A stretch of 38,691 nucleotides of DNA from Chiloscyllium plagiosum (Eukaryota): NCBI RefSeq assembly GCF_004010195.1, contig NW_025214056.1, positions 1 through 38,691 of the forward strand. The letters are read 5' to 3'. The notes below the pieces were generated by a model, which was given only the letters and a program-made list of their open reading frames with translations, made no database searches and was not told where the DNA came from. The translations under genes and the position numbers were made by a program. Shown one piece after another: positions 1,018-37,530 of this stretch; position 1 is the stretch's first letter, and each line of letters begins with the position of its first letter.

Positions 1018-1193
1018 AAAAGCAAATTACTGCGGATGCTGGAATCTGAAACCAAAAGAGAAAAATGCTGGAAAATCTCAGCAGGTCTGGCGGCATCTGC
1101 AAGGAGAGAAAAGAGTCAGTTAGACATCAGTTCTTTTCTCCCCTTACAGATGCTGTCAGACCTACTGAGATTTTCCAGCATTTTCTCTTTTGG
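1018..1193. mobile_element. Short fold-back Penelope-derived insertion
   Basis: Arms aaccaaaagagaaaaatgctggaaaatctcagcaggtctggcggcatctg / cagatgctgtcagacctactgagattttccagcattttctcttttggtt, an unpaired ~30-nt tail on the left, and flanking duplication ttgtaaatt(g/t)tcat at 1004-1017 and 1194-1207. Confidence 0.75.
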
Positions 1194-3095
1194 TTGTAAA
1201 TTTTCATTCTTGGTTTCAAAATCCTCCATCTCTGTTCCCTTTCCTATCCCAGTAATCTCTAATGTCCCGCAACCCACTAAGATATCTGAACTCCTCCAGT
1301 TCTGGCCTCTGTCACATCCCAGATTCCAATCCGTCCATTGTCGGTAGCTATGCCTTCAGTCTTGGTCCAAAGCTCTGGAATTCCCTCCCTTTCTCCCCCT
1401 TTATTTTTAATCACTTTTCAAAATCTATCTCTTGAATGACACCAACCTAATGTCTCCTTGGGTTTCTTAGTGCCAAGTTCTGATTGATAATACAACAGTG
1501 AAATATCTTGAGAAATTACACTATGTTAAAGAAGCGACATCAATACAAGTTATCATTAATTATTCACAGTAATGAGTTCAAGGCAGTGTCTATTTGTTAC
1601 ATCGTTCCACATGGGTTTCAATTCAGTGGTGACAAGGAAATAGCAATTAGCAGTAATAATTAAAGTCTAGAATCAGTGACAAATTCTAACAGTCTTGGAA
1701 ATTTAGAAGAAAATCTATAATTAGTAGAAACAACCAGTTTTTTCTTTGCAAATTGGGTATTCCCCCTTCAGATAGACAACATTCAGTTCACATAGATCAT
1801 AAAGAATCTGCTTCAATCATTCTGTATCAATTTGTTAAAAATAAAATGAAAGAATAATTTCTTAAAACAAGGTGCAATTGTAGATATGTAAAGAGCATTA
1901 GAGTGGATCCCATTGTGTAAGGAGATAAAGGAATGCCCAATGTCAAGGGAAAGAGCGTTCAGCATTATTGAGGAGTGCATTCTTCTACAAGTATTCATTC
2001 CACAGCAGTCTTTAGGGCAAAACATTTAAAGCATAAAATCCACAATGAAAGAATTGAAAGGACCCCTCAAGTATCCAAAGTAAAGCTCTCTTGCTGTAAC
2101 TGCCCACCATTGTAATCATGCGCTTAGTTTTAGTTGGAACAAAATACTTCATTGGTGACCAAGTGTGCAATTGTGCAGCTGAGGGAATTATGCACAACTC
2201 TCAATGGCAATAAATGACACAATGAAATTATGTTGAATTCTCAGTTCATTTTCAACCTATTTAATACGGTTAAGGAAAAGTGAACAGAAATTCTGCAAGA
2301 CAAAAGAAGAAAAAATAAATTTACAAAATTAAATCAAGTAAATAAAATTTCAGAAATGAATACAAGTAGGATACAGAAAATATCTGTAATTTGGATTCAC
2401 TTTCCCAAGATTGATTAAAACTGTTTAACTGCTCTATTAATTGCAGGGTGTCCATCTGTGACCCTGTTCCTTCTCCCAAGGCTTTTGATATAGTTTTATG
2501 GGGTTTGAAGAGGAGAATTGAGGAGTCAGCAACAGAAGATAATGCTTAAAATTCTCCTCAGAAGCTAAATTCAATTTGGTCATAAATGAAGAAGGTCTTC
2601 GGTATCTTCTTTGCACTCAAACCTTGTCTGATCAGAACGGATTGGTATATTGAAAAGCTCGTGAACCAATCTGCTATTTATACTTCTCATTTCCCAAGGA
2701 CTGAAATCTGGACAGTGTTAAGAGTCTGAAGGGAGATTAAAATTCAGAAATGTGTATAGCCTGCTCCCCACTAAAGCTACTTACCAAATAAATTCTGCAC
2801 TTGTAAAAGAGTAAGGGCGGACATGTACAGAACACAAATGCTAGCAGGGACCAATTTTACAGTTAGTCTGTTCCTGTGCTCTAAATTCTATCTAATATAC
2901 TGAATAGATTTCAAATGATTGTGGGACAGTGTTATTTTAATTCACTCTACAATCTGAGAACTTTTGCACAAAATAGTTTGTTTTGACTTAAACAGTCTTA
3001 GTTGTTTTAATGATCCAGAACAAAATAAACAATAAATGTGAAATGCTAATTTTCCTTGCCTGAAATTGACAGCAATGCTTCTGACTCTCACACAG

Positions 3096-3185
3096 GTTGT
3101 AGTAAATCGCAATCTAGCCCCTGCATTCTCCTTTGGCATCAGGCATTCAGAGTACCTGACACCAGTAATCGACAATATTGTGTAA
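3096..3185 (+). CDS. ODF3: ODF3/CIMAP1A-family terminal coding exon
   Basis: Acceptor ctgactctcacacAG|GTT at 3094-3095 (branch-like ctgac); encodes VVVNRNLAPAFSFGIRHSEYLTPVIDNIV* (TAA 3183-3185), matching the ODF3 C-terminal motif 'AP..TFGIKHSDYMTPL'; in frame with the 717-857 exon. Confidence 0.9.
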   Translation, partial: VVVNRNLAPAFSFGIRHSEYLTPVIDNIV

Positions 3186-3378
3186 CAACGCAAGTTCCTC
3201 GTAACTTATAAAATGTTATAAAACAATTATGTACAATTTGCCACATTCTGATCTAAGTTGCATCCCTTTGAAAACTTCCTGCACTGGTTTAAGAAGTTAC
3301 TATACTTACTGTATTATGTTTCAAACATTCTGTGGATACCATTTCAAGTCATGTATTCTTTTCAAAGAAATGAAGACA

Positions 3379-3570
3379 GTGACCACGTGATGGAGTCTGT
3401 GCTTGTGATGTCCCCACATTATGATGGGATGTGGATCTATTTTGTGACTCTTACGTACTATGTTGGGAAGTGGATTTCTCTGTGATTTCTGCTTATGGTG
3501 ATGGCACATGAGTTTGTGATTTCCCCACATAGTGATGGGAGGCATGCCCCTGTCTATGATTCACACATGC
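3379..3570. repeat. Degenerate minisatellite, ~34-40-bp unit (gtgatttccccacatagtgatggga...)
   Basis: About 5-6 units starting near 3379, 3405, 3444, 3482, 3516 and 3556. Confidence 0.5.
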
Positions 3571-3646
3571 TCACATCCTATTTTTACTCACGCCACTCTG
3601 TGTTGCAAAGTATAATCAGATATTTTCACAAAGAAGGAAAATAAAT

Positions 3647-3988
3647 TCTGGATGTAGGTTTGCTCGCTGAGCTGGAAGGTTCATTTCCAGATGTTTTGTC
3701 ACCCTAGTAAGTAACATCTTCAGTGGGCCTCCGGGCAAAGCACTGCTGATAATTCCTGCTTTCTATTTATATGTTTGGGTTTCTTTGGATTGGAAATGAC
3801 ATCACCAACCCAACGAAACCCAAACATATAAATAGAAAGCAGGAATTATCAGCAGTGCTTTGCCTGGAGGCCCACTGAAGATGTTACCTACGGGGGTGAC
3901 GAAACGTCTGGAAATGAACCCTCCAGCTCAGCGAGCAAACCTACATCTAGAACCTCAACCTGAGTTACAAATCTTCTCAAAACTTGCT
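3647..3988. mobile_element. Penelope-derived inverted-pLTR insertion with 12-bp TSD and hammerhead-like core
   Basis: ~145-bp inverted arms (3647-3793 / 3805-3952), a 36-nt unpaired tail (3953-3988), and TSD aggaaaataaat at 3635-3646 and 3989-4000. Confidence 0.85.
3872..3911 (+). ncRNA. Minimal hammerhead-ribozyme-like motif (Penelope type)
   Basis: cca-CTGAAGA-T-GTTACC(tacggg)GGTGAC-GAAA-CG-TC-tgg: 3-bp stem I, conserved core boxes, 6-bp stem II and a palindromic ACGT stem/loop III. Confidence 0.6.
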
Positions 3989-5304
3989 AGGAAAATAAAT
4001 GATAGGGTAAATCGTTGAATTAAATTGAGTAAACATTGGAAGGTACATTTCTCTGGAGAGAGAAATGCAAATACTGACTGGCCTGCTAAGTACTTCCAGC
4101 ATTTTCTGTTTTTATTTGACTTCCAGTTTCTGTCCTATATTTTACCTTTTAAATTGCTAGGTCTTAAAACTTCCCCAATACTTGCAATGCAGAAGTAATT
4201 TATTCTGACTTCATTTTGTAGCAAGTACTGGGAGGAGCAGCCAAAAACATCTGTTCAATCAAACTCTCAACCAGGCAGGCAAAGCAAAGAACAGAGCAGA
4301 GTAGTCAGTCACAGGCCCCATATGTCTACCAAAGTAGATCTGTGCTACAATCTTCTTTATCTGTGAATTAGCCTAAGAAAGATTATTATTCAGCACTGCC
4401 CCCAAATAGGATAGAAATAACACTGTGTACTCAGATAGACTGCAATTCCTCAAGTGACATAAGAATCCTTAGACCAGTATAACTTGGTGTGTCAGCTGGG
4501 ATATTATCACGGTCCACTCAGAGGCAAAACTGGTCAGGAATTTGAAACCAAGTTCTATTCTGCATATCTGCAATGAGTTGGGTTGCAAATGAAGGTTAAA
4601 CCTCTGAATTAAAGGAATAATGTAATTGCAATATCTTGAAATATTGAATAAACCATTTAGTAGGTTATTTTTGGTCTCATTTACTTTTTTTGTGGTTTTG
4701 TTATGACAAGGAGACAGACGGCTGAACTAAATCAGCCACTCTGCCTCTGTATTCAGAACACAATAAAATTAAAAGCTTGAACGACACATAAAATTGACTC
4801 CAATGGTTTCTAAACAGACCTTTAAATAACCAGACTGTGACTAATTAACTCCAGATACCAAATTGTATCTTAAACAAAAGATTTAGCAATGTATTAACAA
4901 TATAGTAACTTCTGCAGAACAAAAATTAAACAAAGTAATCTAATAGGTCTATGATTTAAACACAACAACTTTTGTTTTCAGCCCCATTCACTCAAAAGGT
5001 AGAGAACAAATACAATTAAGAGATAAAGAAAATAATAAAACTAGCCAGATTACTAAATGGTCTTCATGAAGTCTTAATCCACAGGCATGTATGATGGTTT
5101 ATTGGTTGATTTTCTAAGATATCGATAAGGGTCACCTTTTCAGTTCACTCAGACAAAGGCAGTAATACTTTATAACTTAGTTTTCTATTCTCAGGGCTTC
5201 TGAGAGCTGCTCATGCGAGGTTAGGCATGGAGCGTTCAAATCTTCACACTGCAGCATCAACAGCCAGATTTCCACCTTCCCAAAAACCACAATTCTAACA
5301 CTCA

Positions 5305-6035
5305 GTTAAGGTCACGGGGAGTGCTGCAGAATAAAGAGATCTTGGAGTGCAGGCTCATAGTTCCTTGAAAGTGAAGTCCTAGGCAGACAGGATAGTGAAG
5401 AAGGCATTTGATATGCTTTCCTTTACTGGTCAGTGTATTGAGTATATGAGTTGGAAGGTCAAGTTGCGGCGGTACAGGACATTGGTTAGGCTACTTTTGA
5501 AATACTGCATGAAATTCTGGTCTCCCTGCAATAAGATGTTGTGAAAATTGAAAGCGTTCAGAAAAGATTTAAAAAGGATGTTGTCAGGGTTGGGGGATTT
5601 GAGCTAGAGGGAGATGCTGAATAGGCTGAAGCTATTTTCCCTGGAGCGTCGGAGGCTGAGGGGTGACCTAATAGAGATTTATAAAATCACGGAGAGCATG
5701 GATAGGGTGAATAACCAAGGTCTTTTCCCTGGGGTGGGGGTGTGGGGGGAGTCCAAAGCGAGATGGCATAGATTTAAGGAGATAGGGGAAAGATTCAAAA
5801 GGGACCTAAGGGCAACTTTTCACACAGTGGGTAATGCATGAATAGAATGAGCTGCCAGAGGAAGTGGTGGAGGCTGTCCAATTATAACATTTAAAAGGTG
5901 TCTGGATGGGCATATGAATAGGAAGGGTTGCGAGGAATATGGGCAAATGGGACTAGATTAATTTAGAATATCTGGCCGGCATGAATGAGTTGGACCAAAC
6001 GGTCTGTTTCAATGCCATACAGCTCTATGACTCTA
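5305..6035 (+). mobile_element. CR1-clade (HER1-like) LINE 3' fragment
   Basis: ORF 5614-5841 (LNRLKLFSLERRRLRGDLIEIYKI) is the classic CR1 ORF2 C-terminus; ends in a ctctatgactcta tail. Confidence 0.9.
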
Positions 6036-6204
6036 ATTCAAACTCTGACCACTCTGACATCTCCTCCATGATTTCCCAGTTACCATACAACATCTAGCCC
6101 CAGCTTGACCATAAGATCTTTTCCAGTCTTGCTGGAACCAATTCCCAATTCCCCCACCCCCCCACCCCCAATTTGTCATTAAACAATGACAAATATTTAA
6201 AGCA

Positions 6205-6700
6205 ATAAAAACAGAAATTGTTGGAAAAGCTTAGCTGGTCTGGTAGCATCTGTGGAGGGAAATCAGAGTTAATATTTCAGGTCCAGTGAACCTTTCTCAA
6301 AATTAATGGTAGCTAGGAAAAGTTGTTGTTTTATGAAGTAGATAGGGTAGGGGGAGCGGGGTAAGGAGTAAATGATATGTGGAGTTAGAGCCCAAGGAGT
6401 GAGAACAGTTGGAGAATGAATAGCTACTAATTGGGACGATTAGTGGTTAACAATGGATTGTATGTAATAGCAGGCCATATAATAACAAGGCCTGGTGTGT
6501 GGGGTTGGCGTAAGGACATGTGAGAAAGTGCCTGAAGCCCTAAAATTATTGAACTTGATATTGAGTCCAGAAGGCTGGAAAATGAGGTGCTGTTTCTCCA
6601 GCCTTCGCCTGAGCACTGCAGCAAGCCCAAGACAGAGATGGTCAGGAAACAAGGTGGTGTGTTGAAGTGGTAGGCATCTGGAAGCTCACGGTCTTTTTTG
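6205..6700 (-). mobile_element. Penelope-like element 3' fragment (GIY-YIG C-terminus plus pLTR)
   Basis: Frameshifted ORFs 6427-6708/6440-6652 give KDRELPDAYHFNTPP...SVLGLLQC...RRLEKQHLIF.QPSGLNIKFNNF, typical of the PLE endonuclease C-terminus. The 6205-6300 end (aacagaaattgttggaaaagcttagctggtctggtagcatctg) is shared with the short hairpin elements. Confidence 0.8.
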
Positions 6701-6976
6701 CCTGCCACTTCAACACGTGGAAATCTTACAGCAATTGTATTCTACATTAGTCAGAGAACACCTGGTGTAATGTGTACATTTTTGGCCTCCAATCTCAAGG
6801 AAGGACAAGAATTCAATAGAAAGAATGTAACAAAGCCACTTCATATATGGCTGAGTGAGAATGGGCTCAACAAGGTCACGGTTGCCATTGTAAGTAACTG
6901 AGGGTGGGTGGGTAAACTAGATATAAAATAAACTATACACACAATCACAAGTTTAAAACATTTTGGGTGATCAATA

Positions 6977-6982
6977 TTTATT
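6977..6982 (-). terminator. Candidate BET1L polyadenylation signal (AATAAA)
   Basis: tttatt on + about 600 nt past the stop; followed on the minus strand by a GU-rich tract (ttgtgattgtgtgtatagtt, 6931-6950). Alternative hexamers at 7203-7208 and 7230-7235. Confidence 0.5.
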
Positions 6983-7573
6983 CTGAGAAAGATGAAAGCA
7001 ACACTAACAATTTACATACTTCACGACTACATATTTAGCAAAAAAAAATTTTGAAAAATAAATCCTCAAAATCAAAGATTAAGTCAATAAAGGATCATCA
7101 TCTTTGGAATTAATCATACAAAACATCCTTTGCAATATTTAAATTATGTCATGAAGCAATAAATCTAAAACATCCTTTTCTTAATAATTTTTAAAAATTA
7201 GTTTTATTTGGGTTGTATGGAGGCCCCAATTTATTCTCCTCGCTTCAAGTGAGAAATGGGGCTCTGATCCAGTTTTATGTTTGCATTCTCAGTGAAAGTT
7301 AATCAAGTTTTTGCACTGTACATCAGTGTGCACTATGAATTTCATGTCACAAGCACTATAGTGTCATATAAAATCATGTTCTCTCATCTCTCCCTGAAAG
7401 CTCATCTTCATTCCCAGACTGATCGAGGGAACCTCTTGAAATCTTGTTTTGTGAAGAAACTTTGGTGCAAAAGGAAGGGCAGTCAGCCTTTTTAGCAGTA
7501 TCCAAAGGAAGTTTGGCAAATATTCTCTGGTCACTGGATCTATTCCTCATCACACTGTCCGACTGTAAAAAGA

Positions 7574-7741
7574 TCAAGTCTGAATTCTCATGATAAGGAA
7601 GTACAGGATGAAGAAAAGAAGGACCAGCCCAATAGACATATAACACAACAGTTTCTTGTTGTCCCGACCAGATTTCACCATCGAGGAAAATCTCTTCACA
7701 CTTCCTGTCAAAAGTCCAGTAGCACTCAAAAAGTCAGAATC
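7574..7741 (-). CDS. BET1L: BET1-like Golgi SNARE (GS15), exon 4: end of SNARE motif plus TM anchor
   Basis: Acceptor ttttattgtgtggcAG|GAT; encodes DSDFLSATGLLTGSVKRFSSMVKSGRDNKKLLCYMSIGLVLLFFILYFLIMRIQT* (168 nt including TGA at 7576-7574). Confidence 0.97.
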   Translation of the reverse strand, partial: DSDFLSATGLLTGSVKRFSSMVKSGRDNKKLLCYMSIGLVLLFFILYFLIMRIQT

Positions 7742-8005: not shown

Positions 8006-8116
8006 GGAGAAAAAGTGAGGACTGCAGATGCTGGGGATCAGAGCTTAAAAATGTGTTGCTGGAAAAGCGCAGCAGGTCAGGCAGCATCAAAGGAGAAGGA
8101 GAATCGACGTTTCGGG
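8006..8116 (-). mobile_element. Truncated Penelope-derived short insertion (single arm)
   Basis: Same sequence family as 30603-30791; ends at gacgtttcggg(c); flanked by caacacag duplication at 7998-8005 and 8117-8124. Confidence 0.75.
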
Positions 8117-14372: not shown

Positions 14373-15300
14373 CATAGAATCATAGAGTCCTACAGCACAG
14401 AGACAGGTCCTTTCACCCAAATTGGTCCATGTCAACCAAAACACCCACACACGCTAACTCCATTTCTCTGAACTTGGCCTATATCCTTCTAATCCTTTCC
14501 TAGCCATGTATTTGTTCAAATGCCTTTTAAATGGTGCTAATGTACCCATCTCAAACACTTCTGCTGGCAGCTTATTCCATACACATAGTATCCTCAGGTT
14601 CTCTTTTATTTTTTCCCCCTCTACTCTTAAATTCATGCCCTGTTGTCCTAGATTCCTCTCGATTGGGAAAAAAGCTGAGTGAATTCACCCTATCCATGAT
14701 CTTATACACCTCTATAAAGGTCCCCCCTCAGTCGCCTATACTCTAAAGAAAACGTCCTAGCTTGTCCAACCTCTCCCTATGACACAGACCATTCAGTCCT
14801 GGCAACATGCTTGTAAATTTCTTCTGCACTCTTTCCAGTTTAATAACATCCTTCCTATAACAAAGACACCAAAACAGAACACAATACTCCAAGAGCAGCC
14901 TCACCAACATCCTGTATAACTGCAACATAACTTCCCAACTTCTATACTCAATACCCTGATTGATGAAGGCCAGTGTGCCAAAAGCCTTCTTCACTGTCCT
15001 GTCTGCCTGTGACTCCACTTTTAGAGAACTGTGAACCTGAACTCGGAGATCCCTCTGTTCCACTACATTCCTTAAGGCCCTACCATTCACCATGAAACTC
15101 CTAGCTTGATTTGGCTTTCCAAAATGCAAGACTTCACACTTATCTATATTAAGCACCATTTGCCATTTCTTGGCCCCCTTCCCCAGTTGATCATGGTCCT
15201 GCTGTAATTTCTGATAACCTTCCTCAGAAATTACAGCACTGTCCATGATACCGCCTATTTTAGTGTCATCAGCAAACTTACTAATCATGCATTGTATATT
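14373..15300 (-). mobile_element. CR1-clade LINE 3' fragment with RT C-terminal ORF remnant
   Basis: ORF 14743-15288 begins ISKFADDTKIGG (RT YADD-type motif) and continues ...KCEVLHFG...QRDLRVQV...LEYCVLFW; catagaatcatagagtc tail at 14373. Confidence 0.92.
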
Positions 15301-15930: not shown

Positions 15931-16157
15931 GATATTTTTAATCAACTTATTCAGACATGTTGTGACACAGCTCTGGAGGGGACTTGGAACATAGACCTTC
16001 TGGTCCAAAGTAGGGACATTACCAATGCTTCACAAGACCCCAAATCGTATTGCCCCTGTTGTTTCCAAGTGGTCACCCATCCAAATAGAAACCCGGCCTG
16101 CATAGAGTCCAAGAGCAGATGAGATTGGGTGTCTTCAGACTGGTATGATCGTAGGCA
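15931..16157 (-). mobile_element. Composite 5S rRNA-derived + tRNA-like SINE with 13-bp TSD
   Basis: A 5S-like head (16156-16043) is fused to a tRNA-like module (16040-15931); TSD cttctgttttgta at 15918-15930 and 16158-16170. Confidence 0.75.
16043..16156 (-). pseudogene. 5S rRNA-derived sequence (near full length, diverged)
   Basis: Reverse complement GCCTACGATCATACCAGTCTGAAGACACCCAATCTCATCTGCTCTTGGA...TTGGATGGGTGACCACTTGGAAAC aligns along vertebrate 5S rRNA, with many CpG-type substitutions. Confidence 0.85.
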
Positions 16158-19236: not shown

Positions 19237-20321
19237 AAATGTGGAGACTGAGACAAAATTGTGATGTAATATTCAAACAGATGAGAATTGGAGTGGACCG
19301 TTTCTATCATTTTATATGTTTCCAGGGATTGAACTGTATCAGCATATCAGACGTTGCTGCTACATCAGAATGTCCAGTTTATTGTGTAAAGTGGAATCTC
19401 TTGTTTCACAGCCCACTAATACAAAAGAAAGACTTACATTTATACAGCCACTTACAATGCTTCAGCCAAAGTACTTTACTTGCTTCAAACAAACTCCATT
19501 GTCTTTGACACTTTACTACCCAAGTAAAGGTCCCTCATTGCTAAGGGATGGAATTATTAGCGAGAATGTAGAAATATGAAACATCAGGTAGATCAAATCT
19601 TTGATTTCTAATTCCATGCCATGCAAACATCTGAATTTTAGGGAACTTTAGGTTTGTCTCTTCCATGGTGTCATGTTTTGGTATGAATACTTCAAGGGTT
19701 AGGCACAACATGATATGTATAAGGATTGCAATCCAACATGGGGTCTCTATGTAGGGTCGACTACCTTGTCAAATAGTCTGCATCTCATGACTGAGCATTA
19801 GCCTCCAATGGGCATGCAACCCAGATCAACATCACAACCAAAGGATGACATCATCTGGCTTCACAAGGAAACCATGACAACACAGATTCCTGACAAAACA
19901 CAACAAAGTGGTACACAATGTGCATCTGTAAATGTGAGTCAATTGGACCAAACTTCGAAGACCACTGTGAGGAGGATTGAAAATACTGCAAAGTAGCATC
20001 ATTAATCAATTAAGAAAAAAAACTGTTAGCCAAAAACTGAGACAGTTTCCAAATACATCTCAAATCAGATCAAATTAGTGAACAATTAATTGGCAATTAC
20101 CTACAAAACACAATTAAAGGTTTCTTCAAATCAAGGAAGATTGGATAGATCATAGAGCAAAATGCTGGACTGAGCAGCTTTGGGTGTTTGAGAAGGTTTA
20201 GCATTTCAAAAGGTTCAGTATTTCAAATCTCATCTGTACTGAGGACACATTAGTAAGCTTTAAAATACCGAACTGAGCAATTCCATCTTTTTGATTTTCA
20301 GTCTGTGCCAAGATTTCAAAA

Positions 20322-23300
20322 ATGCATCGCAATGTGGAATTATTCTCAGTGAGCCTCATAAAGATGACTGCTGAGGAAGATGAGGATTCTCGGAAGAAAA
20401 TACTGAATAGTCTATACATTCTGGGATGTCACCACCCAGAGATGGTGTTAACTGTCTGTCATGACTATCTGTCTCACCACAGCACATTGACAGGTCTACA
20501 GGGGGCTGTAATTTTCGACACCATGACAATGATTACCAAAAAAACACTTGAACAAATTAGTGAAGGCCTAGCACAAAACATTCTCTCATTGGCTGCACTA
20601 TGGATTACTAAATTAACAGGAAGTCAAGCTGACAGCCAGGAAGCTGCAAGCAATCTCCTAGTTACCATGAGTTTCAGGTTTATGGATCAAGTTCTCCAGT
20701 TGACGATGGAGAATTTAAAGGAAGGGAATGTTCCAAATGCATACATGGTGAAAACTTTGACCAAAATGTCAGCAGAAAACACGCTGGTCATGATGCCTTT
20801 TCTGAAATCTATTATAGGGACAATGATTCCAGCTCTTTTCGGAGTTAAACAGGATGAGTTGAAAGTTGTATTTGCTGCAGCACTGGGAAGTTTTAGTAAG
20901 AGCATTCTGCTCTACCTGGAAAATACTGAGAAAGCCTCAGACCTGACAGTGACAAAAGACTCTTTCTACTCTGAGATTAGCACTGTCTATAGCACATTCT
21001 TCAAGGTGTGGCTTCAGAAGGAGCCTTCTAAACTGAACATCCAAGTAGTGGAAGCTTTGGGATACGTCAGCTGTCTGCTACCCAAGGACAAATTTGAGAA
21101 AGAACTTCCCAAGATGATTCCAGCCATCCTCTCTCTCTACAAGAAACAACCTGGGCACTTTTCCATTACAGAGTGTCTATGCCGGTTGCTAGATGCTGCT
21201 ATGGAGATGGGACATCCTGGGTTGAAAACACAGCTGGATAATCTGCTTAATAATCTCCATCAGCAGATATGCCTCTCGGTAGGGGCAAATAACCATCATA
21301 CCACAAAGAATCACACAGAGATCCTTCGCTGTTTCATAGTTCTAGCCCCAATTTATGCAGATTCACTAGTTGACTTCCTCTTACTCAAGTTAGAGAATAC
21401 AGAACAACAAATGAGAGTGGGAACGCTCACTGTGCTGAGGCATCTCATCAGTTCAGTCTCCTCGCACTTAGAGAGGAAGCAAGTTAAGATTGTTGCTGCT
21501 ATTAAACCAATGCTCCAGATGAATTGCACTAATCATGAGAAGAAGTTAATTGCCCAAGTAATATGTGCCATGGCCCAGCATGGTTACCTTGAGCCAGAAG
21601 AAGGAAAGGCAACAGTAGAATTCCTCATCCGACAGTGTGCTGCTTCCATTGATTCAACCACCTCAGAACTAACCAACCATCAAGAAGAGCAAGTAACAGA
21701 TGAAGACCTGGCCACAGTGTGTGAAACAGTGATGTTTATGATCACAAATACTGTGAAGATGGAGGATGCTCTCTGGCCATTCTTATTGGAATGTGTCACA
21801 ATGACCCAATATACCAAAGCTCTAACAACAATCTGTAACTGTTTAGCACATCTGGGAAAGAAGAAACCACAAGATATTGGTGAAAGGTTTTCCCTTATTT
21901 ACAGTGGGAATACCAATGTCCCTAGAGCCCAGGCACTGCTGGCCCGGCTCCTCCTCGTGTCTTGTTGCCCAAATCAAGGAAGAAGCAGAGCAGCTGCAGC
22001 ACTGAGACTACTGCAAGTCCTAAATTTTAATATTCATCCAGCAACAGCAAGCTGGTGGGATGAGGAGCTCCCAGCATTAGTTGACCAATTACAAGGTCAT
22101 TTAAAAGAGAGTCTACATGAACAGGAATGGGAAGAGAAACTATTGCTGTTCCTGTCAAAAACTTTGAATATCATTGATGATGAGGAATGGACAAGTCAGC
22201 TCTGTGACGAAATGTATCAACAGATTGACACCCATGATCGTTCTCCACAGGAGAAGGGCTTTCTCTATAAAGCTCTTGGGATAGTGCTCAGTCAGGTTCG
22301 CAAACGCAATATAAAGGAGGAACTTCACCAAATGTTACTGAGCGTGCAGCACAATGAGAATGCAGAGAGAGAGGGGGCAGCCATTGCCATCGGTTTCTGT
22401 GCCATGACCCATTTCAATGACACCCTCAGCAGTCTGGAGGAGTTTGCCAATTCTAACAGAATTATGAGTACTAACAGTTTTTTCCATATTAACAATGACA
22501 AGCCTGATGTGGATCTGGATCAAGCTAAGAGCACATTAGTCCTGTGCTATGGGAACATGGCACTCTATACACCAGAAGAACTACTGTCTAGAATAGAGTC
22601 TCACATTCTGTCAGCTATCAGTGAATTTATTACAAGTGGGAATAGAATAAAGGCCAAACCCAGGGATCTTACACTAAAACTCAGCATAATAAAGGCCGTA
22701 ACAATGATAGCCAAATCACTACACTCAAATTATCAGAGTGTTCCTTTCAACTTTATCAGAAAGAGAGAGCTGCTCATGTACATGCAGAATCTTATACAGG
22801 ATGAACCACAAGAGCTGCTACACGGTCCTGTTCGAAAGTTAGCCATGATCGCCTGTCTACATCTTGTACAACTACACACTGAATCAAACCAAACTGATAT
22901 CCTAACTTCCCAACTAATCCATACCTGCCTGACTAGTACTTTCAGCATTCTCCCTTTAGAACTAGATAAGGACAAAGACATGGCTAGCAGCAAAGATAGT
23001 ACAACACTTTATATCCAAACCATCACTGCCTTGCAAGAACTTCTGAAGGAAATATTACTTCAGGACCTGTCATCTGAAGGTCTTCAGGCCATGTTTCAAC
23101 AATTTGAGGAATGGATCATTTCAACAAAGGACTATGAACGAGAGCGAGCTATGGACATGATTTTAGTATTGCTGAAATATATGGAGAAGCTTGATACATT
23201 TCCATTAATTAACATGGGTAGTTTGATTGGACAGATAATGCCACGCTGTGCAGACCCGTTGATTTCTATTGGGCAGATTGTCATTGATTGTTTGTACACC

Positions 23301-25160
23301 ATCTTCAGCATTCAGTTATCCTATGGAGGCACAAATCTGGATCAGTACAAAGAGCAGCTAGAGGTTCTGAAATCAGTCAGACAAGCGTTAGCTAATCCGG
23401 ATACTTCAGTCCTCCTACAAACATGCTTCCAGATCACAGAAGTTATTTCAAAGTGTATGCCCCATGAACAGCTGGGCAACCTATTGCTCATGGCCTTCAA
23501 GGGACTATATGATCAACAGCTTAGCTGTTCCAGTGCAGCTGCTATCCTCATTAAAACCATCATTAAAAAACATGGCAATGAACTCCAGAATCAGGTACCT
23601 GAATTACTTGAAGTGTTGAGGAGTCACCTGCAGTTAATTCGTTGCAAAGAGGCAAAACTTTCAGTTCTGCGGAGCATTGCTATTCTAGCCAAGCAAAACA
23701 CAGCAGCAGTTGTATCATGTCTCCTCACTTATCCTGTCCCTTTAGATATGAACACCACTGAAATATGGAGATCACTAGCTGAGGACACAGATTGTGCACC
23801 AATTACAATTCAAGTACTTTTAGACACACTGAACAAACAGTTACCAACTGGGGAAAAGAAAACCTATCCCATTTATGAGAATGTGACACTATATCCAAAT
23901 GCCGAATCACTGGCTGTTACTTGTGCTTTATACCAGATAATAAACACACCTACATCAGCACAGGCTGTAATCCAATTGTTTCCAAAGTTATTCAGCACTC
24001 TATTAATCCACCTCAATTCCTCGATTAATGTTTATCTACCTAAAGTTCTTGCTCCTGATTCTGAAGCAAGGCAGTTTGAATTTGTAGTTGAGTCTCAAAC
24101 ACCAAGAAGTGGGGACATGTGTATGAAATGTGCAGAGACTCTAATGGACTTGCTGGATCGGACAGGAAAACAACAAGTGCTAAACTGCTTGATAGAAAAT
24201 GGAGGTTGGAACCTTATGATGGATATCCACAAATCAGTAATGGGGATAGTCTTGCTTGTCAAAACAATGGCCAGTTACACTGATACCAGTTTGACTAGGA
24301 TTATAGATGAACTAGCAGAATTCATGCCCAGCCTACAAGAGTGTCAGAAAATTACTGTGGCTGCATTCTTTGGAGAGCTTTTAAGATCATCACTGGTTTT
24401 GCAGCTGCAGCTCACTGATACCCTGATGAACAGATTACTTCAATGGCTACCTAATTCTTCTCCAGTTCTCCAATTATTGTGTATCAAGGGGCTAGATAAC
24501 ATCACAACTGGAGCTCCTCAATGCATTGAAAAATACTCTCGCCAAGTGCTATATTCAATCATTTCTATGATGGGATCCAGGGAACATAACAATGAGGTGC
24601 TGATGTTTGAGGTCCTCTCCTGCCTGGATAAACACTTGAATCTGTTAAAAACCAGTACTATCAAACCCTTTTTAATCAAAATCCTCACTGCAGTACAACC
24701 ATTCTTTGAATTTACCAGCGATAAAGTAAGGGCTGAAGCATTTACTGTGTTGGGGAGCTTAGCCAAGTGTGGAACCAGAGATCCCAAATCCTGCTTGTGT
24801 CGACAAATCCATTTGAATCTAGTTCGCTTGTTACTGCAGCTCGATGGAAACAGCAAAGAGGTTTCTAGGTCTTGCAACTCGACACTGCATTCAGTCATCC
24901 CTCTTATTATTTCAGCGAAGGCTGTCTCAGTGATTGTGAAGTACTTAGAGGAGCCAACACTAAAATACATGGAGTTCCTGAGGGTCATATCACAACAACT
25001 CATCAAAGACTTCCCTGAAAGAATCCACGGTTATATCATGGACTGTATGCCCTACTTCAACAATCCAGAGGAACAGCTCAGAGCAAACGCAGTCACCTTG
25101 TCAGGATTGTTTTTCCAACGCCCAGAAAAACATTTCAGATCTGTCCAGAGATTCACCTGA
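20322..25160 (+). CDS. Intronless MROH1-like (maestro HEAT-repeat) protein, 1612 aa; probable retrogene nested antisense in BET1L intron 1
   Basis: Single uninterrupted 4839-nt ORF. It is colinear with MROH1 as I recall it: LPKMIPAILSLYKK, EILRCFIVLA, RVGTLTVLRHLI, AMAQHGYLE, LWPFLL, AAALRLLQVL..NIHP, EWEEKLLLFL, PQEKGFLYK, AEREGAAIAIGFCA, LVLCYG, PRCAD, GGWNL. AATAAA lies 3 nt after the stop (25164-25169). Confidence 0.93.
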   Translation: MHRNVELFSVSLIKMTAEEDEDSRKKILNSLYILGCHHPEMVLTVCHDYLSHHSTLTGLQGAVIFDTMTMITKKTLEQISEGLAQNILSLAALWITKLTGSQADSQEAASNLLVTMSFRFMDQVLQLTMENLKEGNVPNAYMVKTLTKMSAENTLVMMPFLKSIIGTMIPALFGVKQDELKVVFAAALGSFSKSILLYLENTEKASDLTVTKDSFYSEISTVYSTFFKVWLQKEPSKLNIQVVEALGYVSCLLPKDKFEKELPKMIPAILSLYKKQPGHFSITECLCRLLDAAMEMGHPGLKTQLDNLLNNLHQQICLSVGANNHHTTKNHTEILRCFIVLAPIYADSLVDFLLLKLENTEQQMRVGTLTVLRHLISSVSSHLERKQVKIVAAIKPMLQMNCTNHEKKLIAQVICAMAQHGYLEPEEGKATVEFLIRQCAASIDSTTSELTNHQEEQVTDEDLATVCETVMFMITNTVKMEDALWPFLLECVTMTQYTKALTTICNCLAHLGKKKPQDIGERFSLIYSGNTNVPRAQALLARLLLVSCCPNQGRSRAAAALRLLQVLNFNIHPATASWWDEELPALVDQLQGHLKESLHEQEWEEKLLLFLSKTLNIIDDEEWTSQLCDEMYQQIDTHDRSPQEKGFLYKALGIVLSQVRKRNIKEELHQMLLSVQHNENAEREGAAIAIGFCAMTHFNDTLSSLEEFANSNRIMSTNSFFHINNDKPDVDLDQAKSTLVLCYGNMALYTPEELLSRIESHILSAISEFITSGNRIKAKPRDLTLKLSIIKAVTMIAKSLHSNYQSVPFNFIRKRELLMYMQNLIQDEPQELLHGPVRKLAMIACLHLVQLHTESNQTDILTSQLIHTCLTSTFSILPLELDKDKDMASSKDSTTLYIQTITALQELLKEILLQDLSSEGLQAMFQQFEEWIISTKDYERERAMDMILVLLKYMEKLDTFPLINMGSLIGQIMPRCADPLISIGQIVIDCLYTIFSIQLSYGGTNLDQYKEQLEVLKSVRQALANPDTSVLLQTCFQITEVISKCMPHEQLGNLLLMAFKGLYDQQLSCSSAAAILIKTIIKKHGNELQNQVPELLEVLRSHLQLIRCKEAKLSVLRSIAILAKQNTAAVVSCLLTYPVPLDMNTTEIWRSLAEDTDCAPITIQVLLDTLNKQLPTGEKKTYPIYENVTLYPNAESLAVTCALYQIINTPTSAQAVIQLFPKLFSTLLIHLNSSINVYLPKVLAPDSEARQFEFVVESQTPRSGDMCMKCAETLMDLLDRTGKQQVLNCLIENGGWNLMMDIHKSVMGIVLLVKTMASYTDTSLTRIIDELAEFMPSLQECQKITVAAFFGELLRSSLVLQLQLTDTLMNRLLQWLPNSSPVLQLLCIKGLDNITTGAPQCIEKYSRQVLYSIISMMGSREHNNEVLMFEVLSCLDKHLNLLKTSTIKPFLIKILTAVQPFFEFTSDKVRAEAFTVLGSLAKCGTRDPKSCLCRQIHLNLVRLLLQLDGNSKEVSRSCNSTLHSVIPLIISAKAVSVIVKYLEEPTLKYMEFLRVISQQLIKDFPERIHGYIMDCMPYFNNPEEQLRANAVTLSGLFFQRPEKHFRSVQRFT

Positions 25161-27281: not shown

Positions 27282-27472
27282 AAAATCACACAACACCAGG
27301 TTATAGTCCCACAGGTTTATTTGGAAGTTCTAGCTTTCAGAGAGCTGCTCCTTCAACAGTTACCTGATGAAGGAGCAGCACTCTGAAAGCTAATACTTCC
27401 AAATGAACCTTTGGGACTATAACCTGGATGTGTGATTTTTAACTTTGTCCACCCCAATCCAACACCAGCACC
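27282..27472. mobile_element. Fold-back Penelope-derived insertion with hammerhead-like core
   Basis: Arms aaaaatcacacaacaccaggttatagtcc.../...ggactataacctggatgtgtgattttt; core CTGATGA-AGGAG(cagca)CTCT-GAAAGCTA at 27364-27392; ~30-nt tail; duplication tccacattcaattacatta at 27263-27281 and 27473-27491. Confidence 0.85.
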
Positions 27473-27858: not shown

Positions 27859-28069
27859 CACGTTCTCCCCGTGTCTGCGTGGGTTTCCTCCGGGTGCTCC
27901 GGTTTCCTCCCACAGTCCAAAGATGTGCAGGTCAGGTGAATTGGCCAGGCTAAATTGCCCGTTGTGTTAGGTTAGGGGTATGGGTGGGTTGCGCTTCGGC
28001 GGGGCGGTGTGGACTTGTTGGGCCGAAGGGCCTGTTTCCACACTGTATGTAATCTAATCTAATCTAATC
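27859..28069 (+). mobile_element. 5'-truncated V-SINE (HE1-like)
   Basis: V-domain cacgttctccccgtgtctgcgtgggtttcctccgggtgctccggtttcctcccaca, LINE-like 3' end gggccgaagggcctgtttcc, (aatct)n tail. Confidence 0.92.
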
Positions 28070-28119: not shown

Positions 28120-28284
28120 TGATTTGACGGTGCTGGTATTGGACTGGGGTGTACAAAGTTAAAAGTCACACAACACCAGGTTATAATCTAACAGGTTTAT
28201 TTGGAAGCAGTAGCTTTCACAGCGCTGGTAACCACCTGATGAAGGAACAGCAGTCCAAAAGCTAGTGCTTCCAAATAAATTTGT
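28120..28284. mobile_element. Fold-back Penelope-derived insertion (same family as 27282 and 37064)
   Basis: Tail plus arm, core cac-CTGATGA-AGGA...TCC-aAAAGCTA-gtg at 28233-28267, short second arm; duplication aggactaacaaa at 28108-28119 and 28285-28296. Confidence 0.8.
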
Positions 28285-28458: not shown

Positions 28459-28774
28459 GATTAGATTACTTACAGTGTGGAAACAGGCCCTTCGGTCCAA
28501 CAAGTCCACACCGACCCGTCGAAGCACAACCCACCCAGACCCATTCCCCTACATTTACCCCTGCCCCTAACACTACGGGCAATTTAGCATGGCCAATTCA
28601 CCTGACCTGCACATTTTTGGACTGTGAGAGGAAACCGGAGCACCCGGAGGAAACCCACGCAGACACGGGGAGAACGTGCAAACTCCACACAGTCAGTCGC
28701 CTGAGGCGGGAATTGAACCCGGGTCTCTGGTGCTGTGAGGCAACAGTGCTAACCACTGTGCCACCGTGCCGCCC
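28459..28774 (-). mobile_element. Full-length V-SINE (HE1-like)
   Basis: Reverse complement GGGCGGCACGGTGGCACAGTGGTTAGC (A box) ... GGTTCAATTCC (B box), then the V-domain and a LINE-derived tail. Confidence 0.95.
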
Positions 28775-28844
28775 ACAAATTATAGCAAATTAGATTTATA
28801 TTGCACCGTTAACATTACTAAAACTATCCCAAATACTTCACAGG

Positions 28845-29736: not shown

Positions 29737-29942
29737 TTGAAAAGTGTGGTGCTGGAAAACCACAGCAGACCAGGCAGCATCCGAGGAGCAGGAGAATCGA
29801 CGTTTCGGCATAAGCCCTTCTTCATGCCCGAAACGTCGATTCTCCTGCTCCTCGGATGCTGTTTGGCCTGCTGTGTTTTTCCAGCACCACACTTTTCAAC
29901 TCTGGTCTCCAGCATCTGCAGTCCTCATTTTCTCCTAGTTTT
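29737..29942. mobile_element. Fold-back Penelope-derived insertion with 15-bp TSD
   Basis: Arms ttgaaaagtgtggtgctggaaaa...gaatcgacgtttcgg / ccgaaacgtcgattc...ccagcaccacacttttcaa; ~40-nt tail; TSD atcagagtatcagtg at 29722-29736 and 29943-29957. Confidence 0.9.
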
Positions 29943-30602: not shown

Positions 30603-30791
30603 GCTGAAAACGTGTTGCTGGAACAGCGCAGCAGATCAGGCAGCATCCAGGGAACAGGAGAATCGACGTTTCGGGCTTATGCCCGAAACGTCGATTCTCC
30701 TGTTCCCTGGATGCTGCCTGACCTGCTGCGCTGTTCCAGCAACACATTTTCAGCTCTGATCTCCAGCATCTGCAGTCCTCACTCTCTCCTC
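30603..30791. mobile_element. Near-perfect fold-back Penelope-derived insertion with 15-bp TSD
   Basis: ~70-bp arms meeting at gacgtttcgggc-TTAT-gcccgaaacgtc; ~45-nt tail; TSD cagac(t/a)agatgcagg at 30588-30602 and 30792-30806. Confidence 0.9.
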
Positions 30792-33059: not shown

Positions 33060-33907
33060 CTAGTCAAGCAGCAAGAAAAAAAAAACACCTACCTGGCAAT
33101 TGCACAGGTATGTCTGTCCACAAAAAGCAGAAAAAAATTCAATCAGGCTAATTACTGTCTCTGTCAGTCTACTCTCGATCATCAGCAAAATGATGGAAGG
33201 GTTTATCGACATGTTGCTATTAAGCAGCAGTCGACCACCACACTAACACTCAGTCTGGCTAGGGCCAAATCACAGTCAAATATGGGTGAAAAGACCGAAC
33301 TCCAGGACAAGTGGGACAGGGATTGACTGTCCTTGACACCAAGGCAGCATTTGACCATATAAGATATGAATTAGTCCTAGCAAAATTGGAATCAATGGGA
33401 ATTGGAGAAATCTCTCCACTGATTGGAGACATATCCACACAAGTGACTGTAGCCATTGGTACTCAAGTAACTCAATCTAAATATATCACAATTCTGGTCT
33501 CCCTGCTATAGGAAGGATGTTGTGAAACTTGTGAAAGGGTGTTGCCAAGGTTAGAGGGTTTGACCTATAGGGAGAGGCTAAATAGACTTGAGCTATTTTC
33601 CCTGAAGCATCGGAGGCTGAGGTTTATAAAATCATGAGGGGCATGGATAGGGAAAATAAACAAAGTATTTTCCCTAGGTTGGGGGAGGTCCAAATCTAGA
33701 GGGGAAAGGTTTAAAAGGGACAACTTTTTCACACAAAGTGCACATATGGAATGAGCTGCTAGAGGAAGTGGTGGAGGCTGGTACAATTACAACATTTAAA
33801 AGGCTTCTGGATGGGAATATGAATAGGAAGGGTTTCAAGGCAAATCTGATCAGCATGGACAAGTTGGACTGAAGGGCCAGTTTCCATGCTGTATATCTCT
33901 GACTCTG
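33060..33907 (+). mobile_element. LINE debris: older RT fragment (~33060-33490) followed by a CR1/HER1 3' end (~33494-33907)
   Basis: ORF 33311-33511 LDTKAAFDHI...LAKLESMGI (RT domain 'D..KAFD'); 3' part matches the 5305-6035 family. Confidence 0.8.
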
Positions 33908-33945
33908 AAGGAGCTTCTTACTGTAGGGTCCTAGGCCAAACATCT

Positions 33946-34106
33946 CAATAAAACCCCAAAAAACTGTGGATGCTGTAAATCAGAAACAAAACAGAAATTG
34001 CTGGAAAAGCTCAGCAGGTCTCAGCACTTGTCAAGAGAAATCAAAGTTAATGTTTCGGGTTCCATAATCCTTCCTCAGAATCTCCAGCAATTTCTGTTTT
34101 TATTTC
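33946..34106. mobile_element. Penelope-derived insertion with short inverted arm and 10-bp TSD
   Basis: aaacagaaattgctgga.../tccagcaatttctgttt arms; minus strand reads CTGAGGA-AGG...CCC-GAAAC; TSD ccaaacatct at 33936-33945 and 34107-34116. Confidence 0.75.
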
Positions 34107-34379
34107 CCAAACATCTTTAGCTGCTCAACCATTAGGTTAGCAGTGGGAATATTTGCTGATGCACCAGTGAACTCCTCAAATACTTAAGCAGATTGTCTTC
34201 ATAAGCAATGACACCTGGACAGCATCTCTGTTTGGAGTGATATGTATATATTGTGAACACAGATAAGCAGCATTGGAGTGCATGATATAAGGCAGGATGA
34301 AAATAAAGAAAATATACCAAATAAATAATTATCAGGAAAGCAAAGAGAAGGTATGCTGTTGGAGGAACAGAAAATCAAA

Positions 34380-36400
34380 TACTTTACAGCTACATCATTA
34401 AAAAAGGTTTAATGACAACAGGACAATAAGGGACAGTTAGGATAGCATGACAGCAATGGTTATCATATAGAGAAATAGCAGAAATGTGAAGTAACTATTT
34501 TGATTCAGTATTTGATCAGTCAGATGACAACTGGTAGACAAAACACAGAATTATGAGAAGTGTGATGAGATAAGGGCATTTAGATTTTTTTTCTAAAAGA
34601 TGAACAAACTAACTTAATGCAAAAGAGAGTCAAGTTCCTGGTCTTAATGAATTACTGCTAGCCATAGAATTACTAGCCATATGTAATCATTTGATTGGAA
34701 TAGGTATAGTGCCAGAACTCTGGCAAATAGCTAATATGATTCCTATATTTCAGAAGAGGACAAAAACATTTCCATGATATTACTGACCAATCAGATTAAC
34801 ACCAGTGGTTGGAAAATAATGTAATTCTTAGTATAGTAGAATATCTATAATAGTAGGACATCTAGAAATAAGAAATAAACTAATGAATAGTCAGTATGGA
34901 TTTCAAAAGGAAAAGTCTTGTTTCATCAACCTGACGAAGTCTGCAAAATAATGGAGAGGAGACAATAGTAATAATCTTTTACAATAGATTAATAAAGTCA
35001 GAAATGGAGAGTCCAGAGACAAGTGGTAGAATTAATTCTTAGTTGTCTGCAAAACGTGAAAGTACAGAATGGGTGTAAAGGAGTGGCAGATGATGGGAAA
35101 TGGTGTTTCACAAGGATCATTTATGGGATCACTATTGTTCACACTGTACATTGGTGACCTCGACTGTGGAATCAAAAAAATTCTAAATTCACAGATGATA
35201 CATTTCATTTACAGGGAGAGTAATCAGTTGTGGAGAGGATTACAGCAAATTACAGGATACGAATAAACTTGCAAAATGAAAAAAAATTGGCTAAATAAAG
35301 TTCAACAGATAAATGTTAGGTTGTATATTTTGTGAGGAAGAACAGGGTGATCATTTTTTACTTGGAAGAATTTAATCCATGTGGTAAAGGAACAAAGCTA
35401 TCAACACACCAATATATTAAACACTAAATATTTAGGAACAGATATAAACAGATATTGCTGGAAAAACTCAGCAGGTCTGGCAGCATGTGTGGAGGGAAAT
35501 AGGACTTTGTGTTTTGAGTCCAGTGACCCTATGTCAGAACTAAATATTGGGCAACAGATGGGCAAGATCACAAATATATAAATCAAACACCACATTTTAC
35601 TTGACAAGGGGTGAATTTAAAAAGTAGAGGAGTTTAAATTACTCTAAACCTGTATCAAATATAGGACTTGAGAGCAAGCCACCTTTGGCCCTTCAATCAG
35701 CACTACATGTAGTCTAGGAGCAAATTACTGCAGATGGTGGAACCTGTATTGAAAACCACAAATACTTGAGATCAGTGGGTCAGACAGCATTCACGGAAAG
35801 ACAGCAAGCTAATGTTGAGTCAGAGGGTCAGTGTGGACTTGGTGGGCCGAAGGGCCTGTTTCCACACTGTAGGGGATCTAATCTAATCAAACATCAGAGC
35901 TCTGATGTTGAGTCATCTAGACTCGAAACATCAGCTTGCTCTCTCCATGGATACTGTCTGACCTACTGGCATCTCCAGCATTTGGTATTTTCAGTACAGA
36001 TCGTAGAGATACAGCAGAATGCGTAGAGAAGATTTACACAGATACAATGAGCAAAGTATGGACAGGCCAAAATACTTTAGTTTCCTGAAAAGATCTAACT
36101 AGACACCCTTAAAATTATGAAAGCTTTCAGCAAAATAAACACCGAGAAATTGTTTCCTCTTTGTTGTGTAACAGCATAAACAGAGGGCATCAACATAAGG
36201 TGGTCACCAAGAAACACAAAAAAGCGAACTCAGAAGTTTCTCAACACAAAGCATGTAACTCACTAACAAAAGGAGTGGCTGAAGCAAAGTACGTGGACTA
36301 TTTAACGTGAAGCAGGACAGGTGGATGAACGAGATGGGTACAGGGGGTTCCAATGATTTAACTGAGGAGGCTCAAGTGAAGCATCAAGATTAGCAGTATA
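34380..36400 (+). mobile_element. Highly degraded CR1-clade LINE with nested insertions
   Basis: GVSQGSFMGSLLFTLYIGDLD (RT 'GVPQGS.LGP.LF..Y..D') in ORF 35069-35266; cagtatggattt...aaagtcttg RT motif near 34890. Confidence 0.75.
35718..36000. mobile_element. Fold-back Penelope-derived insertion containing a nested V-SINE 3' fragment (~35822-35889)
   Basis: Arms ctgtattgaaaaccacaaatac...cagcaagctaatgttgagtc / gactcgaaacatcagcttgct...gtattttcagtacag; the SINE tail gggccgaagggcctgtttccacactgt...ctaatctaatc is inserted between them. Confidence 0.7.
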
Positions 36401-36715
36401 TCCGAGGTAAACAATACTACATCTGGGAGTTAACCAGTGATTTAGAAATATTTAATATGGTTCACTGTTGTACTCAATGTCTGTATTGATAAAGTCAAGG
36501 ATAATATCCAAGTTTCACGACTTTCTGGACCTGTCCAGTTGGTTATTCAATACCCGAGATTCTCTCTTTCTCCACATATCGAGCCCAGCATCTAAACAAT
36601 CAGCTGAAACCCGCATTCATAATATTCACAACATTCAGTGAGTTCCCTAATGCCAGTCGCGGTCTCCCTCACACCTTGACTGCGAGTTGAATTACTGTAT
36701 GACCCACTCTCTCAC

Positions 36716-36734
36716 CTCGGTTCCTCTCCGCCAT
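36716..36734 (-). CDS. BET1L: BET1L coding exon 1 (start codon)
   Basis: ATG GCG GAG AGG AAC CGA G|GTGAG: 19 nt, phase 1, joining in frame to the 92-nt exon 2. The four exons total 111 aa, the recalled length of human BET1L. Lies beside a GC/CpG-rich promoter region. Confidence 0.88.
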
Positions 36735-36761
36735 ATCTGCGGCAGCAGCATCCGGGATTCA

Positions 36762-37530
36762 GAGGGGCGGGGCCACCTATCCGGGAGAGACGGGGCTAAC
36801 TTCCATCGATCAGGAAGAGGTGGGGTCAACTGTGCATCAATAAGGGAGAGGCGGGGCCAATGGTCAATCAAACCGGGAGAGGCGGGACTAATTTGCGAAT
36901 AGGGAAAGGAGCGGCCAGCTGTCCATCAGGGAGCATCGGGGCCAATTTGCCAGTAGGGAGAGGAGGGGCCAACGGTCCACCAGAGAGAGAGGCGGGAACA
37001 AGTTTCTATCAGTCAGTGGCGGGACCAACTTTCCGTTAGAGAGAGAGGCCAACTGTCCATAATCGATTTAGAGATGCCGGTGTTGGACTGGGGTGTATAA
37101 AGTTAAAAATCACACAACATCAGGGTATAGTCCAACAGGTTTAATTGGAAGCACACTAGCTTTCGGAGCGACGCTTCCTAATGAGCGTCGCTGCGAAAGC
37201 TAGTGTGCTTCCAATTAAACCTGTTGGACTATAACCTGGTGTTGTGTGATTTTTAACTTTGTCCATCAATGAGAGCGTTTGGGCCAACTATCCATCAACA
37301 CGGGAGAGTCGAGATCAACTGTCTATCAAACAGTGAGAGGTGGGGGTCACCGGTCGGTCAATCAGGAAGAGGCGGGGCCATCTGTCCATCAGCGAGAGGC
37401 AGGGCTACCTGTCCATCAATGACAGAGAGCGGCCACGTGTCCATCAATCAGGTTGAGGAGGAGCCGCCAGTCCATCAATCATGAAGAGGCGGGGCTACGT
37501 GTCCATCAATCAGGGAGCGCCTGTCCAACT
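36762..37530 (-). promoter_or_regulatory. Putative BET1L promoter built of a ~27-33-bp minisatellite (consensus gggagaGGCGGGGCCAActgtccatcaatca)
   Basis: About 20 degenerate units beginning ~30 nt upstream of the ATG; many contain an Sp/KLF GC box (GGCGGG) next to CCAAT-like or TCAATCA motifs. Confidence 0.7.
37064..37260. mobile_element. Young fold-back Penelope-derived insertion within the promoter minisatellite
   Basis: ~75-bp arms aaagttaaaaatcacacaac...ctagctttcg / cgaaagctag...gttgtgtgatttttaacttt; CpGs largely retained; tgtccat on both flanks. Confidence 0.88.

Follow-up and report, generated by a model that had tools for sequence, protein, structure and literature searches.

Introduction

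Penelope-like elements (PLEs) that carry an endonuclease insert as distinctive units. A PLE insert with an adjacent inverted pseudo-long terminal repeat (pLTR), a 31-bp tail on one arm, target-site duplications (TSDs) of 8-10 bp and junction palindromes was described in PMC3846280. This architecture of inverted pLTR, tail and TSD is called typical in PMC8557442, and the description is repeated in PMC8969392. How PLEs make the inverted arms and tails is an open question according to both PMC8557442 and PMC11167929. Here we describe short hairpin insertions in a 38,691-nt stretch of DNA from the shark Chiloscyllium plagiosum (assembly GCF_004010195.1, contig NW_025214056.1, positions 1 to 38,691; hereafter the window), using the window and published papers as the evidence base. 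Their architecture is the published PLE insertion pattern in miniature, and is neither a new system nor a retrozyme system. The elements are very probably dead-on-arrival insertion products of several endonuclease-bearing PLE lineages.

As in the insertion units of Penelope/Poseidon, Neptune and Nematis (PMC3846280, PMC8557442), the copies in the window are inverted head to head with a tail on one arm, have TSDs of variable length and show palindromes or microhomology at the inverted junction. They differ in that both copies are cut to 25-150 nt with no open reading frame (ORF) between them, and in that five lineages have inserted about once per 3 kb, with 5' ends clustered in the hammerhead. 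The minimal hammerhead ribozymes of metazoan PLE pLTRs (PMC4209133) share with the present motifs the core boxes, a bulge between positions 9 and 10.1, a G10.1-C11.1 pair, a palindromic 15.2-16.2 and a family-specific stem II, and the same paper already notes opposite-strand hammerhead pairs about 100-700 bp apart. In the window stem II has 4-6 bp, truncation or mutation has affected almost every copy, and cleavage is a prediction.

The closest biochemical precedent is a Poseidon element of the lizard Anolis carolinensis (PAc; PMC11167929), whose protein, a predicted dimer, makes nicks in both strands and extends them. Reverse transcription starts inside the RNA at two sites bracketing the tail, in a stem-loop that follows the hammerhead, and proceeds without any need for the hammerhead to cleave. 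In the elements described here the hammerhead likewise lies about 60-110 nt before the element end, the tail separates two end sites, and a predicted stem-loop encloses the first of them. The loops of families A-C look U-rich rather than AC-rich as in PAc. Animal non-LTR retrozymes (10.64898/2026.07.22.740005) are also short, non-coding and PLE-derived with a type I hammerhead; these, however, are head-to-tail tandem units with at least two ribozymes on the same strand, whereas the copies in the window are head-to-head or single truncated ends.

Inventory of the insertions

The window has the composition of AT-rich animal DNA (60% AT) and is crowded with old repeats resembling long and short interspersed elements (LINEs, SINEs). 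Of 24 sequencing runs listed in a run search, 20 contain part of this stretch, no RNA data set is among the listed carriers, and two raw RNA runs bear the same species label. Searching the window with profiles made from its own arms, at a cut-off of E < 0.01, returned 22 arms, 14 belonging to group A/A2/B, six to group C and two to group D; three weak matches (E 0.13-0.68) were left out. The arms form 13 insertions with a total length of 2.7 kb (7% of the window), of which nine have two arms and four have one (the copies at 8006, 35433 and 6204 and a remnant at 4067). An earlier reading made from the sequence alone (the sequence-only reading) had listed ten insertions of 110-340 bp. All ten were recovered, with sizes of 111-342 bp, and three further single-arm relatives (35433-35538, 4067-4126 and 6204-6716) were added. 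The insertions are as follows.

1018-1193: E1, family A hairpin, tail on the left; arms 1050-1114/1132-1195 (59/64 paired) stop near the hammerhead cleavage position and have no core; TSD 1004-1017/1194-1207 (13/14)
3647-3988: E2, family D hairpin with 148-nt arms, 3646-3793/3805-3952 (138/148 paired), tail on the right; TSD 3635-3646/3989-4000 (12/12)
4067-4126, plus strand: decayed family A remnant, profile match E 3e-11
6204-6716, minus strand: longest family A copy, with a tail-less end; no TSD found
8006-8116, minus strand: E3, a tailed single arm of family B whose 5' end falls in stem II; TSD 7998-8005/8117-8124 (8/8)
27282-27472: E4, family C hairpin, both arms (72/79 paired) breaking off at the first bases of the core, right-hand tail; TSD 27263-27281/27473-27491 (19/19)
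28120-28284: E5, family C, left arm tailed, right arm short (21/22 paired); TSD 28108-28119/28285-28296 (12/12)
29737-29942: E6, family B hairpin, arms (78/83 paired) with ends at -26 and -13 relative to the cleavage position, right-hand tail; TSD 29722-29736/29943-29957 (15/15)
30603-30791: E7, family B hairpin (79/82 paired) centred on stem II of the hammerhead itself, with 4 nt of microhomology, right-hand tail; TSD 30588-30602/30792-30806 (14/15)
33946-34106: E8, family A, with one complete, tailed arm that spans the hammerhead (34049-34078, minus strand) and a second arm of about 25 nt (18/18 paired); TSD 33936-33945/34107-34116 (10/10)
35433-35538, minus strand: family A copy with one arm, which stops a short way upstream of a decayed hammerhead; TSD 35423-35432/35539-35548 (10/10)
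35716-36002: E9, subfamily A2 hairpin, the most decayed (arms 67/79 paired), with a hammerhead at 35902-35932 carrying one core change and a piece of another repeat in the hairpin centre; no TSD found
37064-37259: E10, family C hairpin (arms 74/77 paired), tail on the left, in a GC-rich 27-31-bp minisatellite

The minisatellite that hosts E10 spans 36783-37548 and adjoins a CpG-island-like stretch with GC boxes. E5 is flanked by two inverted copies of a SINE-like repeat, 27965-28059 and 28459-28553 (88% complementary), and an end piece of the same repeat lies in the centre of E9. An inverted repeat at 15190-15249 (23/25 paired, within a LINE-like fragment) contains a core-like string by chance, matched no family profile and was rejected as a member of families A-D.

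Arms, tails and target-site duplications

The sequence-only reading had counted at least four families, which holds when subfamilies are included (A, A2, B, C and D); the number of unrelated groups is three. Groups A/A2/B, C and D could not be aligned with each other (cross-scores at most 22), while similarity is 75-80% between subfamilies A, A2 and B and 85-93% among copies of one family. The inverted arms, with a single arm at 8006, were found as described, the second arms of E5 and E8 being merely short. Exactly one tail is present in all nine two-armed copies (P 0.002 if each arm chose independently with equal chance). In seven of the eight pairs measured the unpaired tail extends 33-43 nt past the tail-less end, in keeping with the ~30-45 nt claimed; the eighth pair, E5, gave a value of 71 because its second arm stops inside the element.

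TSDs were sought in a boundary-anchored search with 400 random position pairs as the null, of which 0.75% reached a score of 8. Duplications of 8-19 bp had been claimed for most insertions and are present at eight of the ten listed (scores 8-19), and at nine of the 12 loci tested, which comprise all insertions except the remnant at 4067. The duplication at E10 is doubtful (7 bp exact, null 2.5%, minisatellite location), and the search found none at E9 or at the 6204 copy. TSD length varies within a family, with values of 8, 15 and 15 bp in family B and 19 and 12 bp in family C.

This result bears on two other explanations. Short, non-coding, palindromic and TSD-flanked elements of this kind resemble miniature inverted-repeat transposable elements (MITEs) or fold-back DNA transposons with terminal inverted repeats, but such an origin is hardly conceivable, having been largely refuted already by TSDs that range from 8 to 19 bp and vary even within a family. 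Moreover, on the side of the tail the repeats do not reach the terminus, TSDs also flank copies with a single arm, and one family runs on into endonuclease-like coding sequence. It is also very unlikely that the second arm was added after insertion, by host repair or replication template switching, or that it is an assembly artefact. The unrelated small inverted duplication at 15190-15249 indicates that such events do occur here, but one TSD pair encloses both arms, the second arm ends at the tail-less site of its family in eight of nine copies, and the arms have diverged by 2.7-15%, unlike a sequencing fold-back. The proposal that these are products of PLE retrotransposition and not MITEs was upheld by the variable TSDs, the one-sided tail, the inverted copies and the hammerhead.

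Probable construction of the hairpins at each insertion

Junction positions were read by eye with the cleavage base set to 0, for three copies in each of families B and C. Family B ends fall at -12 (the single arm), -26/-13 and -11/-19, and family C ends at -28/-30, -16/-33 and -21/-19, so that the junctions are all different in 3/3 copies of each family. As no common junction was found, the hairpins were most likely built at each insertion and not copied as MITE or retrozyme units. Two single-arm copies are bounded by their own TSDs, E3 with a tail and the copy at 35433 without a full tail, which indicates that one cDNA suffices. The second arm is also variable in length, being about 25 nt in E8 and stopping inside the element, at target-like sequence, in E5. 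At tail-less ends the target resembles the continuation of the element (26/56 bases identical against 26% expected, P 8e-4), and exact microhomology runs there sum to 8 (P 0.02). Taken together, the differing junctions, single-arm TSDs, short second arms and target microhomology point to construction during each insertion.

The sequence-only reading had left a choice between abortive insertion and a retrozyme-like system, and the differing junctions and TSD-bounded single-arm copies bear out the former. In the latter, a hairpin or short hammerhead RNA, linear or circular, would be cut by its ribozyme and replicate as a non-autonomous family with PLE proteins supplied in trans. The similarly short lengths and the clustering of 5' ends at the hammerhead would fit, and the retrozymes of animals, one host being a chondrichthyan, have their origin in PLE pLTRs (10.64898/2026.07.22.740005). 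We nevertheless regard a retrozyme-like origin as improbable. Head-to-tail hammerhead arrays are absent among the 11 tandem-repeat entries of the window, the junctions are unshared, and an intact hammerhead was kept on only one of the 22 arms. Since the hairpin cores face opposite strands no monomer could be released, and since most arms reach upstream past the cleavage position their template was uncleaved there.

The hammerhead motif

A descriptor of the minimal type I hammerhead matched six times in the window, always within these elements, against a mean of 0.9 (maximum 3) in 30 shuffled sequences. With stem I required and no core mismatch allowed there was one match, against 0 in 30 shuffles. 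The hammerhead core noted in the sequence-only reading is present beyond chance expectation. The strict match is the following.

3875-3908, plus strand: sole intact minimal type I hammerhead of the window, with core, 6-bp stem II, palindromic CG at stem III and 3-bp stem I

This motif has the bulge after A9, the G10.1-C11.1 pair and the palindromic stem III of PMC4209133. The monomer fold of 3866-3916 was no better than shuffles (z -0.43), and in Rfam no hammerhead family was matched, microRNAs giving sub-threshold matches only. An ATG overlaps the start of stem II, as is likewise described for the lizard PLE (PMC11167929). From this ATG through the tail family D has a stop-free frame of ~36 codons (3881-3988, plus strand, by eye), which resembles the start of the lizard PLE ORF. 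In family A a pyrimidine tract followed by CAG and ATG lies after the hammerhead (6253-6270, minus strand, and equivalents) and looks like a splice acceptor; family B lacks the AG.

Stem II pairs were counted from coordinates, a cross-family MAFFT alignment of the hammerheads having been discarded as out of register. Position 2 is G-C, A-T or T-A and position 4 is T-A, C-G, G-C or A-T, depending on the lineage. The pairs are those claimed by the sequence-only reading; its term 'covariation-like' is better replaced by structural conservation, because neither C nor D is alignable with A/B. Among A, A2 and B, which do align, the changes are real double changes, with the caveat that in the best family B example (E7) the GGGC/GCCC stem is itself the fold-back junction and the independent copy (E6) is short of one base. 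Broken stem II pairs in single copies are what decay would produce. The hammerhead is, as a component of the interpretation given at the outset and with the same high probability, a motif of the parent PLE that was carried uncleaved and is now decaying, and not the engine of these copies.

The longest copy and the link to PLEs

On the minus strand the 6204-6716 copy consists of a decayed, frameshifted endonuclease-like C-terminal coding piece (about 6530-6698) followed by a 3' untranslated region, and it also holds a TATA-like box (6329-6335), a decayed hammerhead (6271-6300) and an 18-nt internal fold-back (6659-6676/6699-6716). The upstream sequence of family A reads HFN and PSGLN on the sense strand, in different frames and 95 nt apart (6669/6574). 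An HFN...PxGLN pair occurred in three of 300 shuffles, a figure to be read with the knowledge that the motifs were picked after the translation was seen. The pair resembles the C-terminal part of the PLE endonucleases in the supplement of PMC8557442 and is nearer the Neptune and Naiad rows of its Fig. S2 than Poseidon, in which respect family A differs from PAc. Naiads have no canonical hammerheads and an N-terminal endonuclease (PMC8557442), and for this reason our guess from the sequence is that the longest copy is Neptune-like.

The fragment at 6205-6700 had been labelled GIY-YIG-coding. Its C-terminal endonuclease-like motifs agree with that label, the fragment lacks the actual GIY-YIG motif, and database searches gave no confirmation. 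Neither viral contigs nor metagenome contigs held any match to the pattern common to families A and B (0 in each). The architecture is stronger evidence for PLE origin than the coding fragment.

Clustered 5' ends and a predicted tail stem

The 5' ends of 15 of the 22 arms (nine of 13 elements) lie between -37 and -11, inside the hammerhead region. This clustering exceeds that under the most favourable exponential truncation (P 2e-5 per element, for an interval chosen after the fact). In the long family A copy a TATA-like 7-mer stands ~64 nt upstream of the cleavage base, from which an RNA start near -34 would be predicted; as a start signal this box, seen in one decayed copy, is weakly suggested. 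A second candidate was found in family D.

3827-3834, plus strand: putative TATA-like box in a family D arm, ~80 nt upstream of the cleavage position

In the predicted fold the tail of every family can pair with sequence upstream of it, on the far side of the tail-less start site. For families B and D, and for C in one of its registers, the partner is a segment that begins 16-20 nt after the cleavage base, so that the tail-less site is enclosed. RNAalifold recovered a 7-bp tail stem across six A/B arms, and by our own reading of the text for Fig. S1 of PMC11167929 the lizard RNA has a 7-bp stem in a similar layout. We consider the support for the predicted tail stem to be moderate. The geometry in the window agrees with the layout of start sites in the lizard PLE.

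Proposed mechanism

These observations suggest a sequence of five steps. The PLE protein would first make staggered nicks, which would account for the TSDs of 8-19 bp that are observed. Reverse transcription would then start internally, 60-110 nt downstream of the hammerhead, at either of two sites 30-40 nt apart, giving an arm without or with the tail; this has been seen in vitro for the lizard PLE and is suggested here by the ends of the copies. The start sites would lie at the predicted stem-loop formed by the tail pairing back upstream. In line with the observed clustering of 5' ends, the cDNA would mostly halt inside the hammerhead or slightly beyond it; the cause would be an RNA that starts at this point or an enzyme that stalls. 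Finally, the second, inverted arm would be made in the same event and joined via short microhomologies.

For the second arm we lean slightly towards a second target-primed cDNA, made from the other nick by a protein dimer, because of the one-tail rule and the shared end site. Fold-back self-priming, which was proposed in PMC3846280, is a somewhat less probable but serious possibility, favoured by the internal 18-nt fold-back at 6659-6716 and by the stem II centre of E7. We tentatively put forward a more specific scheme, of which the chances are below even, in which the stubs would be run-off products. The protein would bind a stem-loop near the 5' end of the transcript, formed by the tail pairing 30-50 nt back upstream and conserved in shape across unrelated families, and the dimer would prime once at each start site, on opposite strands, and copy no further than the 5' end of the RNA, a short way upstream of the uncleaved hammerhead. 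Microhomology supplied by stem II would close the hairpin. The TATA-like box ~30 nt further upstream in the 6204 copy would belong to the same scheme.

Several observations weigh against the interpretation as PLE insertion products or against parts of this mechanism. The window contains no reverse transcriptase and no full-length PLE, and families C and D are tied to PLEs by architecture and hammerhead only. With the endonuclease piece as query, Pfam gave only a sub-threshold match to IMS_C, word searches yielded 0/63 and 0/4 candidates and PDB 0, the three phmmer matches were all repetitive and unrelated, and the best Atlas scores (0.89 and 0.76) are leads only. The tail stem reached P 0.08 or better against shuffles in only six of ten arms, shows no compensatory change in A/B and has two competing registers in family C. 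The arms of E2 extend beyond their own TATA-like box, which misfits a simple run-off model. The fold-back at 6659-6716 duplicates internal sequence, for which self-priming is a better explanation than a pair of independent cDNAs. As each family has three copies here, there may also be a few replicating hairpin masters elsewhere in the genome.

Age of the insertions

Paired arms differ at 43 of 599 aligned bases (mean 7.2%, range 2.7-15.2%), six of the differences being of CpG type. The sequence-only reading had supposed a system that is very active today, which this divergence does not support; at ~7% the activity is past. At a shark mutation rate near 7e-10 per base per generation (PMC10587355), 7.2% corresponds to tens of millions of generations provided that the arms were identical at insertion, and this age is overstated if they came from different templates.

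Other features of the window

Two further features of the window were recorded.

20295-25160, plus strand: unbroken reading frame of 1621 codons with a Pfam match to Maestro/MROH2B-like HEAT families
16051-16156, minus strand: 5S rRNA-like Rfam match above the gathering score (45.2 bits vs 38)

MROH genes normally have many exons, and the intronless frame may be an intact retrogene. The 5S-like match is probably a pseudogene or the head of a 5S-derived SINE.

Significance

Our literature search, with Repbase, Dfam and most subscription papers outside its scope, found nothing on short PLE hairpins in sharks or vertebrates beyond the general architecture, and the accessible part of PMC5753468 contains nothing on hairpins. 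PLE debris of this kind is easily mis-annotated as MITEs or microRNA hairpins. The stubs form a natural dataset, and thousands of them would allow statistics on the rule of one tail per copy, on the 5' ends near the hammerhead and on the tail stem. If the run-off scheme is true, the many stubs of this genome would record in vivo where PLE reverse transcription starts and where the RNA has its 5' end, and could tell twin priming from self-priming.

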